NCBI GenBank assembly: GCA_016839805.1
Contig: JAEOTO010000020.1
Coordinates: forward strand, 1-17,875
Length of the DNA stretch: 17,875 nt
Source of the DNA: Candidatus Hermodarchaeota archaeon
Lineage (GTDB): Archaea > Asgardarchaeota > Hermodarchaeia > Hermodarchaeales > Hermodarchaeaceae
Direction: 5' to 3'
The stretch's first letter is position 1. Every line of letters starts with the position of its first letter. The notes below the pieces were generated by a model. It was not told where the DNA came from. It was given only the letters and a program-made list of their open reading frames with translations, and searched no databases. This document shows, in pieces, positions 7,563 through 16,689 of this stretch. The translations under genes and the position numbers were made by a program.

Positions 7563-9011
7563 ATGGGGAAACTAATGACATGTTCATGTATGGATGGAAA
7601 TAGATTGGTTAGAAAAAGATTCCATCCAAGACCCAGCTTCACCATTTTCATTTTGGTATCGCTCATGCTAGCCCCAATATGGATCCAAATCTCATATGAA
7701 TTACCGAAAACATCGAACAATAACCATCCATCATCAACAGAATATCATAGAGGATCTAGCCTAGAACAGCCAACCAATCTGGAACACATGCAGATAGAAA
7801 AAATGTGGAACCGAACCTACAGCCGTTCGATGTACGATATCGGGTATGGGATAATCGAATGTCACGATGGTGGATTTGCGATAATTGGGGCTACCCAGCA
7901 AACAAGCATGGAAATGAGTCACCGATACAATTTATGGCTAATCCGAACAGATGCCTCAGGAAACGAGCGCTGGAACACTAGTTTTGGCCAAATAGGTTAC
8001 GATGGAGGGTATGATCTCGTTGAATGCCCTGACGGTGGATTCGCTCTTCTGGGATATTCAATGAACAATCAAAGTGATGCATCTGATATCTTTGTGGTGA
8101 GAACGGATGCCCAGGGGGGCCTCCTTTGGCATAGAATTCATCAAGTCACTGGTTCAGATTCAGGCTATTCGATTATACGGGTCCGTGCAGGTGGCTTTGC
8201 AGTGCTATGTAATCTCATGTTTCGTGAGACATATTTACTTCGAATTGGTGAGGATGGATCTTGGTTGTGGAACCAAACCTTTCCAGTGCCATCTCTTCGT
8301 ACGAATAAGGGACTTGTTGAATGTCCGGATGGAGGATTTGCATTTATTGCTAGTAATGATCCCCTCCGATGGTCCAGTGTAGGACTGTTTCGAACTGATG
8401 CGAATGGACAAATGTTATGGAATCGCTCATTTGGTGATGTTTCAGACACATATTCTGGACGAGGGTTGGTGCTATGCTCTGATGGAGGATTCGCCTTCAC
8501 CGGAGGTATATGGACAACAAATACAAATAATTGGGATATATGGTTGGTTCGTTCCGATTCTCAAGGTACCCTCTTATGGGATCGAAGTTTCGGAAGTTTG
8601 GAGTATGAAATTGCATATTCAATAACTCAAATCCAGGGAGGAGGATTCGCGTGTACAGGAATAGTGGAAACCGCTGAGGGATTTCATAATATCAGATTAG
8701 TAATTACGGATCCATTAGGAGAAACACTATTGGATCATAGAATTGTATGCTATAGTAATTATCGAGCATATTCTATTGTCGAATGTAAAGATGGAGGACT
8801 GGCATTTACCGGGGGATTTGATGAGGGAGATACTGGAATGAACTTGATATTATTCCGAATACCTGGAAACCCAAATTCGATTCTTACTAATCGAGTTGTG
8901 TGGGTTATTCTCGTTTTATTGCTTCCTCTGATGACTAGTGTCCTAGTGGTTTGGATTGCACTTCATTTTCTTCGATCAAAGGGCAAACAAAAGAAGGCCA
9001 AATCGCCGTAG
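7563..9011 (+). CDS. Cell-surface beta-propeller-like repeat protein with N-terminal signal/TM and C-terminal TM anchor
   Basis: About 7 repeats of about 50 aa, consensus D.GY.I.EC.DGGFA..G......WL.RTD..G..LWN.TFG; C-terminal TM followed by RSKGKQKKAK. True start may be downstream of 7563. Confidence 0.85.
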   Translation: MGKLMTCSCMDGNRLVRKRFHPRPSFTIFILVSLMLAPIWIQISYELPKTSNNNHPSSTEYHRGSSLEQPTNLEHMQIEKMWNRTYSRSMYDIGYGIIECHDGGFAIIGATQQTSMEMSHRYNLWLIRTDASGNERWNTSFGQIGYDGGYDLVECPDGGFALLGYSMNNQSDASDIFVVRTDAQGGLLWHRIHQVTGSDSGYSIIRVRAGGFAVLCNLMFRETYLLRIGEDGSWLWNQTFPVPSLRTNKGLVECPDGGFAFIASNDPLRWSSVGLFRTDANGQMLWNRSFGDVSDTYSGRGLVLCSDGGFAFTGGIWTTNTNNWDIWLVRSDSQGTLLWDRSFGSLEYEIAYSITQIQGGGFACTGIVETAEGFHNIRLVITDPLGETLLDHRIVCYSNYRAYSIVECKDGGLAFTGGFDEGDTGMNLILFRIPGNPNSILTNRVVWVILVLLLPLMTSVLVVWIALHFLRSKGKQKKAKSP

Positions 9012-10147: not shown

Positions 10148-11554
10148 CTAGCTAAGAATTCGCCTAAAGGAATAGCGTGAAAATACGAAAATAATGGGTA
10201 GAAAGACCAATGCTCCAAATATGATAGTTGCACCCTTAGCTATCAGAAATAGTTGATAACGAATTAGCATCTCAGATACTGTTGAGACATAGAGATTGCT
10301 GTTCAAATACACCGTAGACCCATCTAAGGTGTAATATACTAACTGAGATGCTGATTGGAATTTTTGTAGATGAACAAGATAGCTGTATTGGGAATCAATC
10401 ATCACAAGATCGACATACGAATTCTGTGTGGGGATATCAGTGAGTAGGATTGGGGAGTCCCAACTCGTGCCAATTCGCTTCATAATATAGAAACGAATTA
10501 GTAAGTTCCAGGAAGAAGCCACAAAGTTAGGAGGGGGAATAAAATGTTCTTGCCCTAAGAGTTGAAGGTTATTATCTGAATCCACTTCCAAATCGAAGAG
10601 TCGTCCGGGAATTTGATCAAAATGAGTAGTTGCACTCCACGTTTGGTTATAGTAGGATCGGTGAAAAATATCACCTGAATATTCACACCATACAACATGA
10701 ATTGTTTCATCCGGACTCATAACCACCAACCATTCATCAAGACCCCAGGTGCCATTATTAACCAGTACGTCTTGAGACCAGGATCCATTGCGATAGGAAC
10801 GAAATGCTAGCCCAAAGTTATCTTGACTGTAATTATCCCAGAAAAAGTAAAGGTGGTCATCGAAACCTGCCAAGAGCTGTGATCGTTGTAGATAATGAGC
10901 ACCCTCAGCTGTCTCATCTAACAAGGTTACTGGAGGTAACATCGATCCAACTTGCCAACACTGGAGTTGCCACTGAGAATCAGATAGGTGGTTGAGATAA
11001 AAGGCATGAAGAGTGCCATTCAACCCATATTGGAGTTGAAATTTGGATACCACATGGGTATTGGGAAGTATTTGGATGGTTGACCAGGCTGTGTTATTGT
11101 ACACTCGAAGATAGCCTTGTCCATCTCTTGGATCAAAATACCAATTAGGGAGGGGTTGAATCCACCCAATAGCGATATTTCCTGTTGAATCACATGTCAG
11201 GGTGGTTCGAATATCTTCAGAATAAGACCAGATTTGATAAGGTAACCAATTGGTTCTAAATGGTTCTGATATGAGTATCGGATCAATATCGTGAGTAGGG
11301 GCCTGGTATTTCATGACACAGCGTACGGAACCATTGGGGAGAGAGATTACTTCTCCCCAGCATACTTGTAACTGGTTAGCCCCATCTAATTCCGCTTGAG
11401 GGGATATTGGACCAATTGCCGGTTGATAATACAACCCATCTATTGCGGGGGCAGTCATAACGGATACAAAAAGGAAGACCCCAATTATCATCACTTGGAA
11501 AAGAATAATCAGAGTAGGCTTAAGCGATTGTGAAGAATTAGGGCTCCTTGTCAA
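10148..11554 (-). CDS. Cell-surface beta-propeller/BNR-like protein with N- and C-terminal TM segments (start reassigned from 11791 to TTG 11554)
   Basis: Repeats of D..G..H..W...Y......WS; TTG 11554 is in frame and overlaps the upstream TGA (TTGA coupling), and is followed by a signal-like hydrophobic stretch. Confidence 0.75.
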   Translation of the reverse strand: MTRSPNSSQSLKPTLIILFQVMIIGVFLFVSVMTAPAIDGLYYQPAIGPISPQAELDGANQLQVCWGEVISLPNGSVRCVMKYQAPTHDIDPILISEPFRTNWLPYQIWSYSEDIRTTLTCDSTGNIAIGWIQPLPNWYFDPRDGQGYLRVYNNTAWSTIQILPNTHVVSKFQLQYGLNGTLHAFYLNHLSDSQWQLQCWQVGSMLPPVTLLDETAEGAHYLQRSQLLAGFDDHLYFFWDNYSQDNFGLAFRSYRNGSWSQDVLVNNGTWGLDEWLVVMSPDETIHVVWCEYSGDIFHRSYYNQTWSATTHFDQIPGRLFDLEVDSDNNLQLLGQEHFIPPPNFVASSWNLLIRFYIMKRIGTSWDSPILLTDIPTQNSYVDLVMIDSQYSYLVHLQKFQSASQLVYYTLDGSTVYLNSNLYVSTVSEMLIRYQLFLIAKGATIIFGALVFLPIIFVFSRYSFRRILS

Positions 11555-12204
11555 GGTAGTACACCTTCCCAAAGTAATTGTATCCGATAATGTGGTGGGG
11601 GTTGATTTCGCCAGTCTCGTTGTTGAAACGTGGTAAATAGAAACCATAGGAAGATACCGATCATGAAAAGGGTGATAATGGAAGTGAGATAGAGGAATAA
11701 CGCACTTATGAACACCGATAAGCTGGTTAGCATACCTAACAAGAAAGTGCAGGAGTTGGCTATTACCGTAGTGGCTCCAATGAATTGCCAATGATTGAGG
11801 GGACCAAGCTCGTTTGTTGTTCTACCTGGTATTTGGAGAAACCATTTGGTTCCACTTCGCCAGAACCAGAATTCGAGGAGAATAGGAGCTAAGAAAAATC
11901 CGATGAACACACCCCAGGGATTGTAAGCAAGGTTAATTCCTAGGTGAAGAAGAACAGTGTATGAAGGTGATGTTATGGGGCTGATGAAAAGGCCAAAGAG
12001 TAAGATGGCAATTCCAAAGGATAAGGGTGTGCTGATGACCTGAACAAAACTCATGTAACCAAGAATATGGACAGCGCGGATATTCCCTAGTTGGCGTTTG
12101 AGTATCTGGTGCCAGACGAGGCCCTCAATGAAGGCACTCATGGCCCAGCTAGCTAACAGCGATCCTAATAACAGGTAAATTTCGTATGAATATAGCACGC
12201 TCAT
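11551..12204 (-). CDS. Polytopic membrane protein, unknown function
   Basis: 217-aa ORF with about 5 TM helices; stop overlaps the start of the downstream surface protein. Confidence 0.75.
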   Translation of the reverse strand: MSVLYSYEIYLLLGSLLASWAMSAFIEGLVWHQILKRQLGNIRAVHILGYMSFVQVISTPLSFGIAILLFGLFISPITSPSYTVLLHLGINLAYNPWGVFIGFFLAPILLEFWFWRSGTKWFLQIPGRTTNELGPLNHWQFIGATTVIANSCTFLLGMLTSLSVFISALFLYLTSIITLFMIGIFLWFLFTTFQQRDWRNQPPPHYRIQLLWEGVLP

Positions 12205-12300
12205 AACTATGATCCCTCACCGTTGCACCAAATGCTAGAAGGAAGAGCAGGCTTTTTAGATTGTGCTGTGGGCAAATAAATATTGAATTCATTGGAAGTG

Positions 12301-12753
12301 ATGTTCGTGAGTTTGGATGAGTATCGGGCAAAACGCGATTTTAGCAAAACTTCTGAACCCCCTCCAGAAGTCAAGGTTAGTGCTGGTAACTTATATGTAA
12401 TTCAACGGCATGAAGCCAGAAATCTGCACTGGGACCTTAGACTAGAACAGAATGGAGTTTTAGTGAGTTGGGCAGTACCTAAGGAACCACCCACAAAAAA
12501 AGGGGTCCGTCGACTAGCCATTCAAACAGAAGATCATCCATTAGAGTATGCTAGTTTTTCGGGGACAATTCCTGAGGGCGAATATGGTGCTGGGAAAGTG
12601 GAGATTTGGGATAGGGGAAATTTTGAAACGGAGAAATGGGAAGAGAAGGAGATCATCGTGATTCTACATGGGAAGCGCTTAGAGGGACAATATTGTCTTA
12701 TTCGGTTTCAAAAAGTCAAGGACGGTTGGCTGTTCTTCCGCTGTGGACCGTAA
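12301..12753 (+). CDS. Stand-alone DNA 3'-phosphoesterase (LigD PE domain)
   Basis: LDEYRAKRDFSKTSEP, VIQRHEARNLHWDLRLE, SWAVPK, RLAIQTEDHPLEY, GTIPEGEYGAGKVEIWDRG are diagnostic LigD_N/PE motifs; no ligase or polymerase domain is fused. Confidence 0.93.
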   Translation: MFVSLDEYRAKRDFSKTSEPPPEVKVSAGNLYVIQRHEARNLHWDLRLEQNGVLVSWAVPKEPPTKKGVRRLAIQTEDHPLEYASFSGTIPEGEYGAGKVEIWDRGNFETEKWEEKEIIVILHGKRLEGQYCLIRFQKVKDGWLFFRCGP

Positions 12754-13756: not shown

Positions 13757-14725
13757 ATGCCGTTAACTGGTGTGGATTTGTTGCTCACTTATCAATGCAC
13801 AAGTCGATGCCACCATTGTCTTTACCGAGCGGGTTCGCATCACCAAGATTTAATGTCAGAACAACAATTTCATGCTATCCTCGAATCCCTCGAAGGATTC
13901 CCTCTTCGTTGGATCATGCTGTTTGGTGGAGAACCGCTTCTTTTTCAAGATCAACTATACCAATGGATTAACACGATTTCTAAGCGATTTCCATCTGTGA
14001 ATAGAGGCATTATCACTAACGGTTTCTGGGCTAAAACGGCTGAAGACCGTAGACAGATCCTAAGGAAATTAAGTGCAGCTGGACTAACCCACCTATCACT
14101 AAGTTATGACAGCTTCCATGCCCGCTTCGTTAATCCCGAATATATCCAAAGGATTTTGAATGAGTTAAAAACTGATGATTTCCAAAAAGTGACAATTGAT
14201 TCCTACTTCCTCTTTGGAGAAAATGCACAAAACGATTACAATTACAAAACCAATAGACTGCTTGAGCAATTAAATATCCCATCTTTTGTGGTACTTCAAA
14301 AGTTTAACGTGTTAACAGTAGGACGAATGGTTGATCACCTTCAAGGCAATTCGACCCTATACACTTTCGATGATTCACCTTGTCAAGTACCCTATTGGTT
14401 AGGATCCAGCCTTGCTCAATTATCAACCATCGAAATTGACAGTGCCGGATATGTTACTCTTTGTCCTGGTATTACGATTGGTAACATGCACCAAATGCCA
14501 CTTCATGAAATTATCTCATCCTATAATCCAATTCAACATCCCATAATCCATGCCCTTACTAGCACAGGTATTGGGGGACTTATTCAACTAGCGCAAGAAC
14601 ACAATGTAAAAATATCGACCTTAAAGGTCAGTAGTGCCTGTCATGCCTGTTACATACTCCGTCGTGCTTTACTTGACACATTTCCAAACTACCTCGCACC
14701 CCGACATCTATATGGATCTGATTAG
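13757..14725 (+). CDS. Radical SAM protein with C-terminal Cys-containing (SPASM/twitch-like) extension
   Basis: CxxxCxxC (CTSRCHHC), GGEPLL, ITNGFWA, LSYDSFH; C-terminal PC..., LCPG..IGN, CHAC. Confidence 0.92.
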   Translation: MPLTGVDLLLTYQCTSRCHHCLYRAGSHHQDLMSEQQFHAILESLEGFPLRWIMLFGGEPLLFQDQLYQWINTISKRFPSVNRGIITNGFWAKTAEDRRQILRKLSAAGLTHLSLSYDSFHARFVNPEYIQRILNELKTDDFQKVTIDSYFLFGENAQNDYNYKTNRLLEQLNIPSFVVLQKFNVLTVGRMVDHLQGNSTLYTFDDSPCQVPYWLGSSLAQLSTIEIDSAGYVTLCPGITIGNMHQMPLHEIISSYNPIQHPIIHALTSTGIGGLIQLAQEHNVKISTLKVSSACHACYILRRALLDTFPNYLAPRHLYGSD

Positions 14726-16689
14726 GATTCTGGATTATTTTCCTCATTAGAATAGTCGAGTAACTGTTTTTGCTGTTCAGTGTGCGAATCGCGTTTTGAG
14801 AGTTTAAATTCCGATTCATCGGTAGTGAAAGGTTCATGGGATTTGTCCGAGAGGAATATGTCAAGCCCTCGTGACTGTTTCCGAGGAAACTCGATTTGCA
14901 TAGGACCCAAAACCTGTTCAAAGGCCATGTCAAGTTTCCTGATATAATCAGGCACATCGATTTCATTTCGTGTAGCCATACGAGTGGGCTTTACACTAAA
15001 AGTTCGGGCACCATACCGGAAGGGTTTCACCTTTACAAAGCCGATTTCATCTCGTTTCTTTACTTTGATACCTTTATCTTTCAGTTGCTCAAGGGCTTGA
15101 TAGGGTTGTGGAAGTCCCGCTCCTTTTCGGCGTTCCTTATCTGCCCTCCAAAGTTTCACTCGATATTCAAGATCTTCAACGGTGAATTCACGCCGACGAA
15201 GCTTGGATATCTGTTGTTTAAGAATCTCAATAATCTTAGGACCAACTTGGGCTAGTTTTTTAGGGTTATCAATACCTTTGAGAGGTTTGACAGCTTCTAG
15301 AAAGATTTGGCGGAATCGTGGAGGCGTGCTGGATTTTCCTAAAGTAATTCCTTTAATGTCGGGTGTTCCATCGGGAAGCATTCCGAAATAGGCTTTCTTT
15401 GCAGAACTAAAGACACAGAGTGGATACACCACATCTACAGCAAGAATGAGATCGAGCTCATCTTTTACTTTTGCAATGAGCCAGTTGATCTGTTTAAGAG
15501 TTGGTTGGTCCAAAAAAAGCGAATCGGTATCACCATAGATAGGACGCATACCCTTCTCAACAGCGTAATCCCAGCTGTTTCGTAATGACCATCGCCCATA
15601 GGCCATCATGGACTCTGCAAGGGGAGGAGATGCAAGACCATGGATTCGAATAGTTACGCCACCACTACTCACCAATAAAAATTTCAGAAGATCTGAGATA
15701 ATTTGTGCTTTCTTGCGTTCCTCAGTAGGTATATCCTTCTGGCGGCTTAAGGGTTTAAACCAATGAATACGTAAATCTTTAAGTGCACCAATCAAGGCAC
15801 TGAAGATACCACGACGATGTGTACAAACATAGTGGGGCTCATCAGGTACCTGATTAGATTGACATTCAGGGTGACCACAATTCATTGTCTCATAAGCGAG
15901 ATTATATCGATCAATCAAGCTCGGATATAGTGACTCGAAATCCACAACTGTCATGTTATAATAGACACCGGGTGTTGGTGCTATTGTCAAGGCACCTTCC
16001 ACGCGATGAGGTGTGTGCCCCAGTGTAAGTTCTTCTGGATTAGGGATTAAAATATCAAGGTGCCGATAACTGGTGTGTAGCATCGACCGAATCCAATCAG
16101 AAACGCTCCGGCTTTTCAAGGCGCGTTGGAAAGGAATATTAGCAATTCGAGCAAGCATAACACCCCAGAGTAGTCTGGAATCATCATATTTTTCTTCAAT
16201 ACGCAATAGGTCCCGAGGTATTTCTGGTACAGGTTGAATCGCGTAGCTGAAGAATTCCTTCAATAGATCAAATTTCAGGGGATCTTCATCAGCGGTTTGC
16301 GCAAATTTTGTGTTAAATGCATCGAGTTGATTCCTTGGTAAATGTAAGTTAAGTTGATGTCCTTTCAGTGTTGGCTTGTGAGGACACCAGAATCGGAGCA
16401 GCTGATCATAAATATAGCTTGATGCTGGTTTAAGGTCACGTTCCCATTCTCGCTCAGTTTCCACCATACTATCCATTGGAATAGAGGCTACTGTGAGAAA
16501 CTCGTCGTTCATCAAGTCTTTTCGTTTAACTTGCGTTCCTAAGCTGGCGGGTAAGGCATAGAAATGCGGGGTAAAATCATCATGAACTGTGATCAGCTGT
16601 TGTTCGGGTGTCTGTAAATATGTAAGCTCAACGCGCCCAAGAACAGCATCATAGGCTGCATCCAATAACCAGAGGTGACTATCAGACAT
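14722..16689 (-). CDS. polB: Family B DNA polymerase, PolB1-like, lacking the 3'-5' exonuclease domain and with divergent motif B
   Basis: Motif A DFESLYPS (about 15919-15942), motif C YGDTDSLF (about 15514-15537), KKAYFG, PolB1-type YETMNCGHPEC...HYVC and LKDLR; no ExoI DIE motif; 655 aa. Confidence 0.9.
   Translation of the reverse strand: MSDSHLWLLDAAYDAVLGRVELTYLQTPEQQLITVHDDFTPHFYALPASLGTQVKRKDLMNDEFLTVASIPMDSMVETEREWERDLKPASSYIYDQLLRFWCPHKPTLKGHQLNLHLPRNQLDAFNTKFAQTADEDPLKFDLLKEFFSYAIQPVPEIPRDLLRIEEKYDDSRLLWGVMLARIANIPFQRALKSRSVSDWIRSMLHTSYRHLDILIPNPEELTLGHTPHRVEGALTIAPTPGVYYNMTVVDFESLYPSLIDRYNLAYETMNCGHPECQSNQVPDEPHYVCTHRRGIFSALIGALKDLRIHWFKPLSRQKDIPTEERKKAQIISDLLKFLLVSSGGVTIRIHGLASPPLAESMMAYGRWSLRNSWDYAVEKGMRPIYGDTDSLFLDQPTLKQINWLIAKVKDELDLILAVDVVYPLCVFSSAKKAYFGMLPDGTPDIKGITLGKSSTPPRFRQIFLEAVKPLKGIDNPKKLAQVGPKIIEILKQQISKLRRREFTVEDLEYRVKLWRADKERRKGAGLPQPYQALEQLKDKGIKVKKRDEIGFVKVKPFRYGARTFSVKPTRMATRNEIDVPDYIRKLDMAFEQVLGPMQIEFPRKQSRGLDIFLSDKSHEPFTTDESEFKLSKRDSHTEQQKQLLDYSNEENNPES

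Follow-up and report, generated by a model that had tools for sequence, protein, structure and literature searches.

A PolB1-like family-B DNA polymerase without a proofreading exonuclease domain in an Asgard lineage and in Bathyarchaeia

Results

The subject of this study is a short family-B DNA polymerase of Candidatus Hermodarchaeota archaeon, an Asgard archaeon represented by a 2.3-Mb assembly (GCA_016839805.1) that is 87% complete. Its gene lies on contig JAEOTO010000020.1 (C7 in our set), the whole of which (17.9 kb, 17,875 nucleotides) was analysed and is referred to below as the window, and it occupies positions 14722-16689 on the minus strand as an intact open reading frame (ORF) with a stop-free translation of 655 amino acids. 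We are highly confident, with regard to both architecture and family, that the encoded protein is a PolB1-like family-B polymerase from which the whole proofreading domain is missing, an assignment of the entire coding sequence that draws on Pfam domain PF00136, on the match to Sso Dpo1 (PDB entry 1s5j), on an AlphaFold2 (AF2) model and on the ratio of non-synonymous to synonymous substitution rates (dN/dS). PF00136, at residues 186-586 (74 bits, the gathering cut-off being 23), was the sole domain returned by a Pfam scan, in which the exonuclease domain PF03104 was not found. Among the NCBIfam models those for PolB1 ranked at the top, with 332.8 bits for NF004417 over positions 424-849 only of the 858 in the model, and the PolB2-type models NF004416 and NF004418 gave 66.6 and 50 bits, respectively. 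The top sequence match in the PDB was Sso Dpo1 (1s5j; E 3.8e-61), residues 173-603 being aligned to chain residues 394-828, and as this match starts at chain residue 394 about 220 residues are gone ahead of the palm.

The extent of the loss was defined by profile-profile alignment (hhalign) of 26 members of the short family (alignment A1) against 14 full-length PolB1s of Asgard, bathyarchaeial and other Thermoproteota origin (alignment A2). Residues 4-165 corresponded to PolB1 columns 50 to approximately 243, and the segment QPVPEIPR (residues 152-160), which closes the first stretch of the N-terminal domain (residues 1-160; 16210-16689, minus strand), fell on the PolB1 consensus PVPDIRRVAIDIEV, the strand that carries or leads into ExoI. 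The short family then skipped some 190 PolB1 columns, which hold ExoI (DIEV), ExoII (NGDxFD) and ExoIII (YCxRD), and had in their place a linker of just 12 residues (DLLRIEEKYDDS; residues 161-172, 16174-16209, minus strand), the alignment picking up at residue 172. After the linker the N-terminal domain goes on with its post-exonuclease helices (residues 173-230, MLARIANIP...SVSDWIRSML...LIP; 16000-16173, minus strand), which align with 1s5j from chain residue 394 and with the PolB1 pattern LxRISRxPMEDVxRQGVSxWIRN, and is followed by palm, fingers and thumb (residues 231-605; 14875-15999, minus strand), assigned from PF00136 and the NF004417 match and 34-40% identical to the PolB1 of the same genome. 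W82, E83, Q152 and P155 of the N-terminal domain are invariant among the 26 members. Every string quoted in an earlier reading of the window made from its letters (hereafter the sequence-only reading) was present in the translation, namely LLDAAYD, HFY, WERDLK, YIYD, QPVPEIPR, MLARIA, SVSDWIRSML and LIP, and the stretch at 16165-16210 that it had taken for the linker corresponds to residues 161-175 and is ordinary DNA with no N.

An AF2 model of the whole protein, built on A1 (mean predicted local distance difference test score (pLDDT) 86.5), had a coil at residues 151-169 and no extra beta-sheet domain, and its top structural match was 1s5j (VIA Z 35.4, root mean square deviation 3.0, 501 residues aligned), with the Thermococcales PolB (PolB3) enzymes far below at a Z of about 24. 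When the first 200 residues were modelled alone (pLDDT 84) and compared with 48,161 representative chains, the linker was again a coil and the top match was again 1s5j_A (Z 12.0, 195 residues aligned), while all remaining matches with Z of 5 or above were N-terminal domains of family-B polymerases. As residues 3-200 of this model span chain residues 48-480 of 1s5j, both N-terminal halves are present and the intervening domain is skipped. The Pfam scan, the gap of about 190 columns and both structure models agree, and the sequence-only reading was fair in calling the exonuclease domain cleanly deleted: all three of the Exo motifs that it had found missing lie in the hhalign gap, PF03104 has no match, and the comparison with Dpo1 that it had proposed returned 1s5j as the best match and no additional sheet domain. 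The exonuclease domain being absent, the short polymerase cannot proofread. A stand-alone PolB-type exonuclease was not found in the window's genome, where PF03104 and PF10108 matched only the full PolB1. Five sequences considered as independent exonuclease-less PolB1 forms (P0178, P0139, P0263, P0248 and P0187) were rejected, being truncated or intein-bearing ordinary PolB1s in which exonuclease matches are kept.

The gene is real and under purifying selection. A protein search of JGI, NCBI, ENA and Logan assemblies recovered more than 100 proteins of 612-686 amino acids with the same architecture, full-length orthologues of 630-660 amino acids numbering more than 100, and orthologues were 56-91% identical to the window protein in Asgard metagenome-assembled genomes (MAGs) and 41-48% identical in Bathyarchaeia; the junction was the same in the 26 aligned sequences, which come from independent assemblies, and five closed Bathyarchaeia chromosomes carry the short polymerase. 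Measured against an orthologue of 92% identity, dN/dS was 0.094 for the whole gene, 0.048 for the polymerase domain, 0.072 for the linker (taken as residues 151-175), 0.24 for the N-terminal domain and 0.17 for the tail. An assembly break at the junction, a danger to which the sequence-only reading had itself pointed, is ruled out by the orthologues in independent assemblies, the 26-member alignment and these ratios. The short polymerases moreover form a discrete family: in an exhaustive 50% cluster library about seven full-length representatives scored 394-1123 bits and were followed, at 305 bits or less, by ordinary PolB1s of 800-1000 amino acids which matched from residue 170 on only, and the same gap in score between the short family and PolB1s was observed in genome searches.

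Within the Asgard family to which the window belongs (genera g1 and g2), each of the 19 genomes sampled had the short form. It was found in none of 132 Asgard genomes outside that family, where the best matches were full-length PolB1-like proteins with 297 bits or less. It was further present in 5 of 121 genomes sampled across the phylum Thermoproteota, in 21 of 201 sampled for the class Bathyarchaeia and in 50 of 121 of the Bathyarchaeia order that includes genome G001, the Bathyarchaeia counts being lower bounds; among the sampled genomes it was not found outside the window's Asgard family and part of Bathyarchaeia. Two MAGs labelled as bacterial (Krumholzibacteriaceae and Acidiferrales; loci L077 and L081) contained a short polymerase at 42% identity and are probably mis-binned Bathyarchaeia contigs. 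In one orthologue of the same genus (L149, G235:C73:5875-9957) the ORF extends to 708 amino acids, as about 24 extra residues split the match near residue 255.

Motif A (DFESLYPS; 15919-15942, minus strand), with the catalytic D250 and the steric-gate Y255, and motif C (YGDTDS; 15520-15537, minus strand), with the catalytic D387 and D389, bore out the statement of the sequence-only reading that the catalytic aspartates are intact. These four residues are invariant in A1, as are K336, S341 and G344 of motif B, K432 and Y434 of the KxY motif, and R307 and K312 of the fingers; among 111 full-length members DFESLYP was conserved in 110 and DTDS in all. Motif B, in contrast to the canonical KxxxNSxYG, reads KFLLVSSGG (15658-15684, minus strand). 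In the family alignment its lysine, serine and glycine are kept and its asparagine is replaced by valine in every aligned member, while the tyrosine is replaced by glycine in all 35 Asgard-type members (K...VS.GG) and kept in the bathyarchaeial members for which motif B was found (K...VS.YG); the corresponding motif of the 14 PolB1s is KVFLNASYG.

Between motifs A and B the family has an invariant C271-x-H273-x2-C276...C289 cluster (15823-15879, minus strand), a candidate that may represent a metal site. Its PolB1 version, CPHxEC...HWIC, is invariant or nearly so in the 14 PolB1s, and while the aligned region of Sso Dpo1 is without this pattern, the cluster is common to non-Sulfolobales PolB1, to which it links the short family. 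Two motifs near the C-terminus are read from their sequence as PIP-like (PCNA-interacting protein-like). The proximal motif, SRGLDIFL (residues 606-613; 14851-14874, minus strand), stands where PolB1 has its C-terminal LxxLExFM, forms a short helix at residues 609-613 of the AF2 model and belongs to a type, [LIM]xx[FYW][hydrophobic] (LDIFL here), that is present in 110 of 111 members. The terminal PIP-like box, QKQLLDY (residues 640-646; 14749-14772, minus strand), is without the second aromatic residue of the PIP consensus Qxx[LIM]xx[FY][FY] and lies in a disordered acidic tail, residues 605-655 having pLDDT values below 50 in the AF2 model. It is restricted to the Asgard branch, where Qxx[LIM]xx[FYW] occurs within the last 30 residues of 35 of 35 members, as compared to 0 of 76 Bathyarchaeia-type members.

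The hosts of the short form are otherwise well supplied with polymerases. The window's genome has a full PolB1 of 1665 amino acids on contig C49 (L101:2116-7113, minus strand; NF004417 974 bits, PF03104 present) with ExoI LDIEV, ExoII NGDNFD and ExoIII YNWQDA, a PolB2 of 735 amino acids on contig C17 (NF004416 375 bits, NF004418 361 bits) with HGIVD as motif C, a PolD (DP2), a Y-family polymerase and a PCNA gene (L176:1498-2253). All five complete Bathyarchaeia genomes likewise encode a full PolB1 (863-903 amino acids, 1044-1092 bits), the short form, PolD and a Y-family polymerase, and a PolB2-type enzyme is intact in three of them, represented in a fourth by an ORF of 509 amino acids whose match is confined to the initial part of the models, and absent from the fifth. 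As the hosts examined have a full PolB1, PolD and a Y-family polymerase, the short polymerase is accessory, an additional enzyme and not a replacement; this is what the sequence-only reading had proposed, and the separate replicative polymerase for which it had asked is there twice over, as PolB1 and PolD, with PolB2 and the Y-family enzyme in addition. The full PolB1 of the window's genome contains two inteins, the first of which, with a LAGLIDADG domain, interrupts motif B (KVFLNA | C...HN | SYG), and the second of which follows about 20 residues downstream (AAE | C...GN | SITALGRY). A Thermoproteota genome with a normal PolB1 was observed to encode also a second, very divergent PolB1-like paralogue (L175, G073:C1:1486000-1490800) of 796 amino acids, at 32% identity and on a long branch.

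Two trees were computed with IQ-TREE (LG+C20+F+G4 by posterior mean site frequencies (PMSF), quick search), the first from 67 full-length rows and the second from 40 rows of the polymerase region (residues 172-605). In both, the short family was monophyletic with an SH-aLRT (Shimodaira-Hasegawa-like approximate likelihood ratio test) support of 100 and a stem of 1.2-1.4 changes per column, and it joined PolB1 in a clade (SH-aLRT 100 and 99) that stood apart from the PolB2 and PolB3-type clades. The approximately unbiased (AU) test rejected a topology in which the short family is joined with PolB2 (p=0.011), and was compatible both with a single clade of all full PolB1s to which the short family is sister (p=0.50) and with a placement beside the Bathyarchaeia PolB1s, as expected of a duplication (p=0.13). 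The term PolB1 derivative, used in the sequence-only reading, thus holds in so far as the enzyme is PolB1-like and without an exonuclease, whereas between derivation from PolB1 and an old sister lineage these two p-values leave both histories standing. The claim of that reading that the enzyme is distinct from PolB2 was upheld by the canonical motif C, the weak PolB2-model scores, the separate clade, the AU test and the gene neighbourhood described below. Within the family the Asgard members formed one clade (support 99-100) and the Bathyarchaeia members, depending on the tree, a clade (support 91) or a polytomy, the two groups being reciprocally monophyletic in the polymerase-domain tree and a polytomy in the full-length tree; the simplest reading of this tree pattern would be one ancient transfer between Bathyarchaeia and Asgard archaea, in either direction. 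Four Thermoproteota family-B polymerases of 772-807 amino acids (L168, L174, L172 and L173, of genomes G038, G022, G090 and G018), with YGDTDS intact and no recognisable ExoI motif, clustered inside the PolB3-type clade and may be the DxD-retaining basal PolB2 forms of PMC11791011.

The short polymerase gene is monocistronic, and of the two genes beside it a radical SAM gene is convergent with it and a DUF6144 gene divergent. When the ORFs of 80 related loci and of the window were clustered, neither a conserved RadA-like nor a PPB2-like neighbour was found, and the neighbours at the Bathyarchaeia loci were radical SAM, lipoate ligase, JAB and oxidoreductase genes. No primase or replisome gene is linked to the short polymerase within the window, and a promoter scan gave sites no commoner than in shuffled sequence. 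A stand-alone LigD 3'-phosphoesterase gene (PF13298, 139.9 bits; 12283-12753, plus strand) is situated 2 kb from the polymerase gene, and 11 of 18 Asgard-type loci have such a gene no more than a few kb away, as against none of the Bathyarchaeia loci. It is convergent with the polymerase gene with unrelated genes between them and, absent as it is from the Bathyarchaeia loci, was rejected as an operon partner in favour of synteny among close relatives; its proximity is at most a weak functional hint. The LigD homologue of one relative (L047:2899-4392, minus strand) carries a LAGLIDADG intein. Elsewhere in the window, 7563-9011 (plus strand) and 10148-11791 (minus strand) encode predicted membrane-anchored or secreted proteins of 482 and 547 amino acids with no significant Pfam family, and many DGGFA-type motif repeats in the former suggest a beta-propeller-like repeat protein.

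Discussion

The best overall explanation of these findings, and a probable one, is that the short polymerase is an active, non-proofreading, specialised enzyme that operates beside the replicases. That it is catalytically active appears quite probable from the conservation of its residues: polymerisation would be retained because the aspartates, the steric-gate tyrosine, the motif B lysine, the KxY motif and the basic residues of the fingers are invariant. A specialised role, as opposed to bulk replication, is inferred since PolD, PolB1, PolB2 and a Y-family polymerase are already in the host. A role in lesion tolerance or repair specifically is more tentative and falls somewhat short of an even prospect. 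The sequence-only reading had called the enzyme active and non-proofreading; the latter is borne out by the absence of the exonuclease, and the former is drawn from the invariance of the catalytic residues and from purifying selection, while the substitutions of valine for asparagine and of glycine for tyrosine in motif B had been left unweighed in that reading.

In the mechanism that we propose, the two N-terminal halves of PolB1, joined to each other by the 12-residue linker, make up together with a PolB1 palm, fingers and thumb a polymerase with no editing function, which the C-terminal PIP-like motifs would recruit to the PCNA clamp. Its most likely role would be such clamp-tethered synthesis in settings where proofreading is counter-productive, as in extension from mismatches or lesions, insertion at lesions and the filling of repair gaps. 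In the Asgard branch the change of the motif B tyrosine to glycine would give a roomier pocket for the nascent base pair and the added PIP-like box of the tail would give stronger recruitment by PCNA, both of which suggest further specialisation after transfer. Several observations weigh against this proposal. At 332.8 bits the short polymerase is far under the equivalog cut-off of NF004417 (780 bits); the altered motif B (asparagine throughout, and tyrosine in the Asgard branch) could impair dNTP binding; PCNA binding is deduced from sequence patterns only; a lesion-bypass role would be partly redundant with the PolB2 and Y-family polymerase of the host; and no repair or damage-response partner is conserved beside the gene across the family and its 80 related loci.

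The changes in motif B also give some weight to the alternative that the protein is a dead or crippled polymerase, kept as a structural or regulatory factor that might, for example, bind PCNA, primer ends or another polymerase, much as does the inactive C-terminal half of Pol epsilon. The departure at the asparagine is family-wide and that at the tyrosine marks the Asgard branch, and the long stem of the family, with its 1.2-1.4 changes per column, also fits a loss of activity. Set against these are the invariance of D250, D387, D389, Y255, K336, K432, Y434, R307 and K312 at 41-47% identity and a dN/dS of 0.048 for the polymerase domain. In RB69 gp43 the motif B tyrosine lines the nascent-base-pair pocket. 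The catalytic parameters of the RB69 variant Y567A are reportedly unaffected (PMC3792054), and a small residue at that position therefore need not abolish activity. PolB2, for its part, was long thought inactive on similar grounds (PMC7544198) but is active despite larger active-site changes (PMC8764526). A dead enzyme is on balance improbable, and so, to much the same degree, is an enzyme that forms a normal part of replication, as a Pol-alpha-like primer extender or a lagging-strand polymerase, with PolB1 or PolD proofreading in trans. In the genomes examined it is always accompanied by PolD and a full PolB1. This, the clamp-binding-like motifs, the housekeeping and non-mobile genomic contexts and its presence in each of the 19 genomes sampled from its own Asgard family would all suit a replicative function; yet a core replication part would not be expected to occur in only about one-tenth of the sampled Bathyarchaeia and to be missing from the other sampled Asgard families, and the window shows no linkage of the gene to primase or the replisome, nor was a stand-alone PolB-type exonuclease found in the genome.

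Membership of the PolB2 (Dpo2) group, in which the exonuclease domain is decayed to a variable degree, might be suggested by the lack of ExoI and ExoIII at a length of about 640 amino acids, as in PolB2, and by the DxD motif that some basal PolB2s keep (PMC11791011). It is nevertheless rejected, and is highly improbable, on the profile scores (the PolB2-type models give it 66.6 and 50 bits but give 375 and 361 to the PolB2 of the same genome), on a motif C that reads YGDTDS and not HxxxD, on the supported branches that separate the two in both trees and on the AU test (p=0.011); the inactivated RadA (iRadA) and PPB2 genes do not adjoin it, and both polymerases coexist in one genome. Only the short length speaks for an artefact of assembly, or for a pseudogene that is decaying after an internal deletion, and the chance of this reading is close to nil: the junction recurs in 26 orthologues, in independent assemblies and in five closed Bathyarchaeia chromosomes, no stop or N lies across it, and a dN/dS of 0.09 together with this conservation led us to reject it.

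The fullest form of the proposed active, specialised polymerase is a possibility to which we would give less than even weight by a wide measure. It holds that the family is an old B1-3 lineage, sister to all PolB1, which lost its exonuclease outright, passed by horizontal transfer, in one direction or the other, between the ancestor of the Asgard family and Bathyarchaeia, and acts tethered to PCNA beside PolB2 and the Y-family polymerase, the change of tyrosine to glycine in the Asgard branch having made of it a dedicated lesion-insertion or mismatch-tolerant enzyme. If this were true, it would constitute an archaeal counterpart of the division of labour among eukaryotic B-family polymerases, reached by excision of a domain and not by its inactivation.

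In more general terms, the short family indicates that a PolB1-type enzyme can lose its exonuclease entirely and yet stay under strong, long-term selection in two distant archaeal lineages. It offers a natural minimal family-B polymerase as a model for the part that the exonuclease domain plays in DNA handling and fidelity, and with it the repair repertoire of Bathyarchaeia, like that of one Asgard lineage, gains a further polymerase. As a case of gene transfer between Asgard archaea and Thermoproteota the family is a clear candidate. Natural archaeal polymerases that have no exonuclease and whose nucleotide pocket is altered are also of practical interest for the incorporation of modified nucleotides.

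To our knowledge, the non-proofreading family-B polymerases described so far all keep a decayed or inactivated exonuclease fold. Archaeal family-B polymerases have been sorted into PolB1, PolB2, PolB3 and seven minor groups, B4-B10 (PMC7544198), and as far as the main PolB surveys could be consulted they describe decay of the exonuclease domain for B2/G2 only (PMC7544198, PMC4104785, PMC11791011, PMC12680538). The text consulted contains no description of an exonuclease-less PolB1-like group, although PMC7544198, whose supplementary tables were available in part, may count members under B1. Pol zeta (Rev3) and Pol alpha resemble the short polymerase in the lack of proofreading and in specialised synthesis, be it mismatch or lesion extension or the extension of primers, beside proofreading replicases (PMC7544198, PMC2275142), but keep an inactivated exonuclease fold and have C-terminal metal-binding domains for B-subunits. 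The extension of mismatches and lesions by Pol zeta and PolB2 is comparable to the role proposed here (PMC8764526, PMC2275142).

PolB2, known from Sulfolobus Dpo2 as a translesion extender polymerase (PMC8764526, PMC11791011), is similarly a non-proofreading family-B paralogue of like size kept beside replicative polymerases. It differs in that it retains a decayed exonuclease domain, has a motif C of the form HxxxD with a single aspartate as well as a D(K/R) motif, and is encoded in an operon with iRadA and PPB2 (arCOG07300), whereas the short family has dispensed with the exonuclease entirely, has a canonical motif C and no iRadA or PPB2 neighbours, and forms a separate clade. With PolB1 (Dpo1, 1s5j; NF004417, NF004419 and NF004415), its best match by sequence, profile and structure, it shares the N-terminal fold, the helical segment before ExoI, motifs A and C, KxY, a C-terminal motif of the LxxF type, the CxHxxC...C cluster and a joint clade with an SH-aLRT of 99-100. 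The short family is set apart from PolB1 by the loss of the exonuclease domain of about 190 residues, a trait that like the equivalog score defines PolB1, by valine in place of the motif B asparagine and, in the Asgard branch, glycine in place of the tyrosine, by its long stem and by a score on NF004417 of 332.8 bits as compared to 974-1092 bits for the full PolB1s of the same genomes, with which it coexists. By descent and fold the closest relative of the short polymerase is thus PolB1 (Dpo1), and by analogy PolB2 is its likely functional counterpart.

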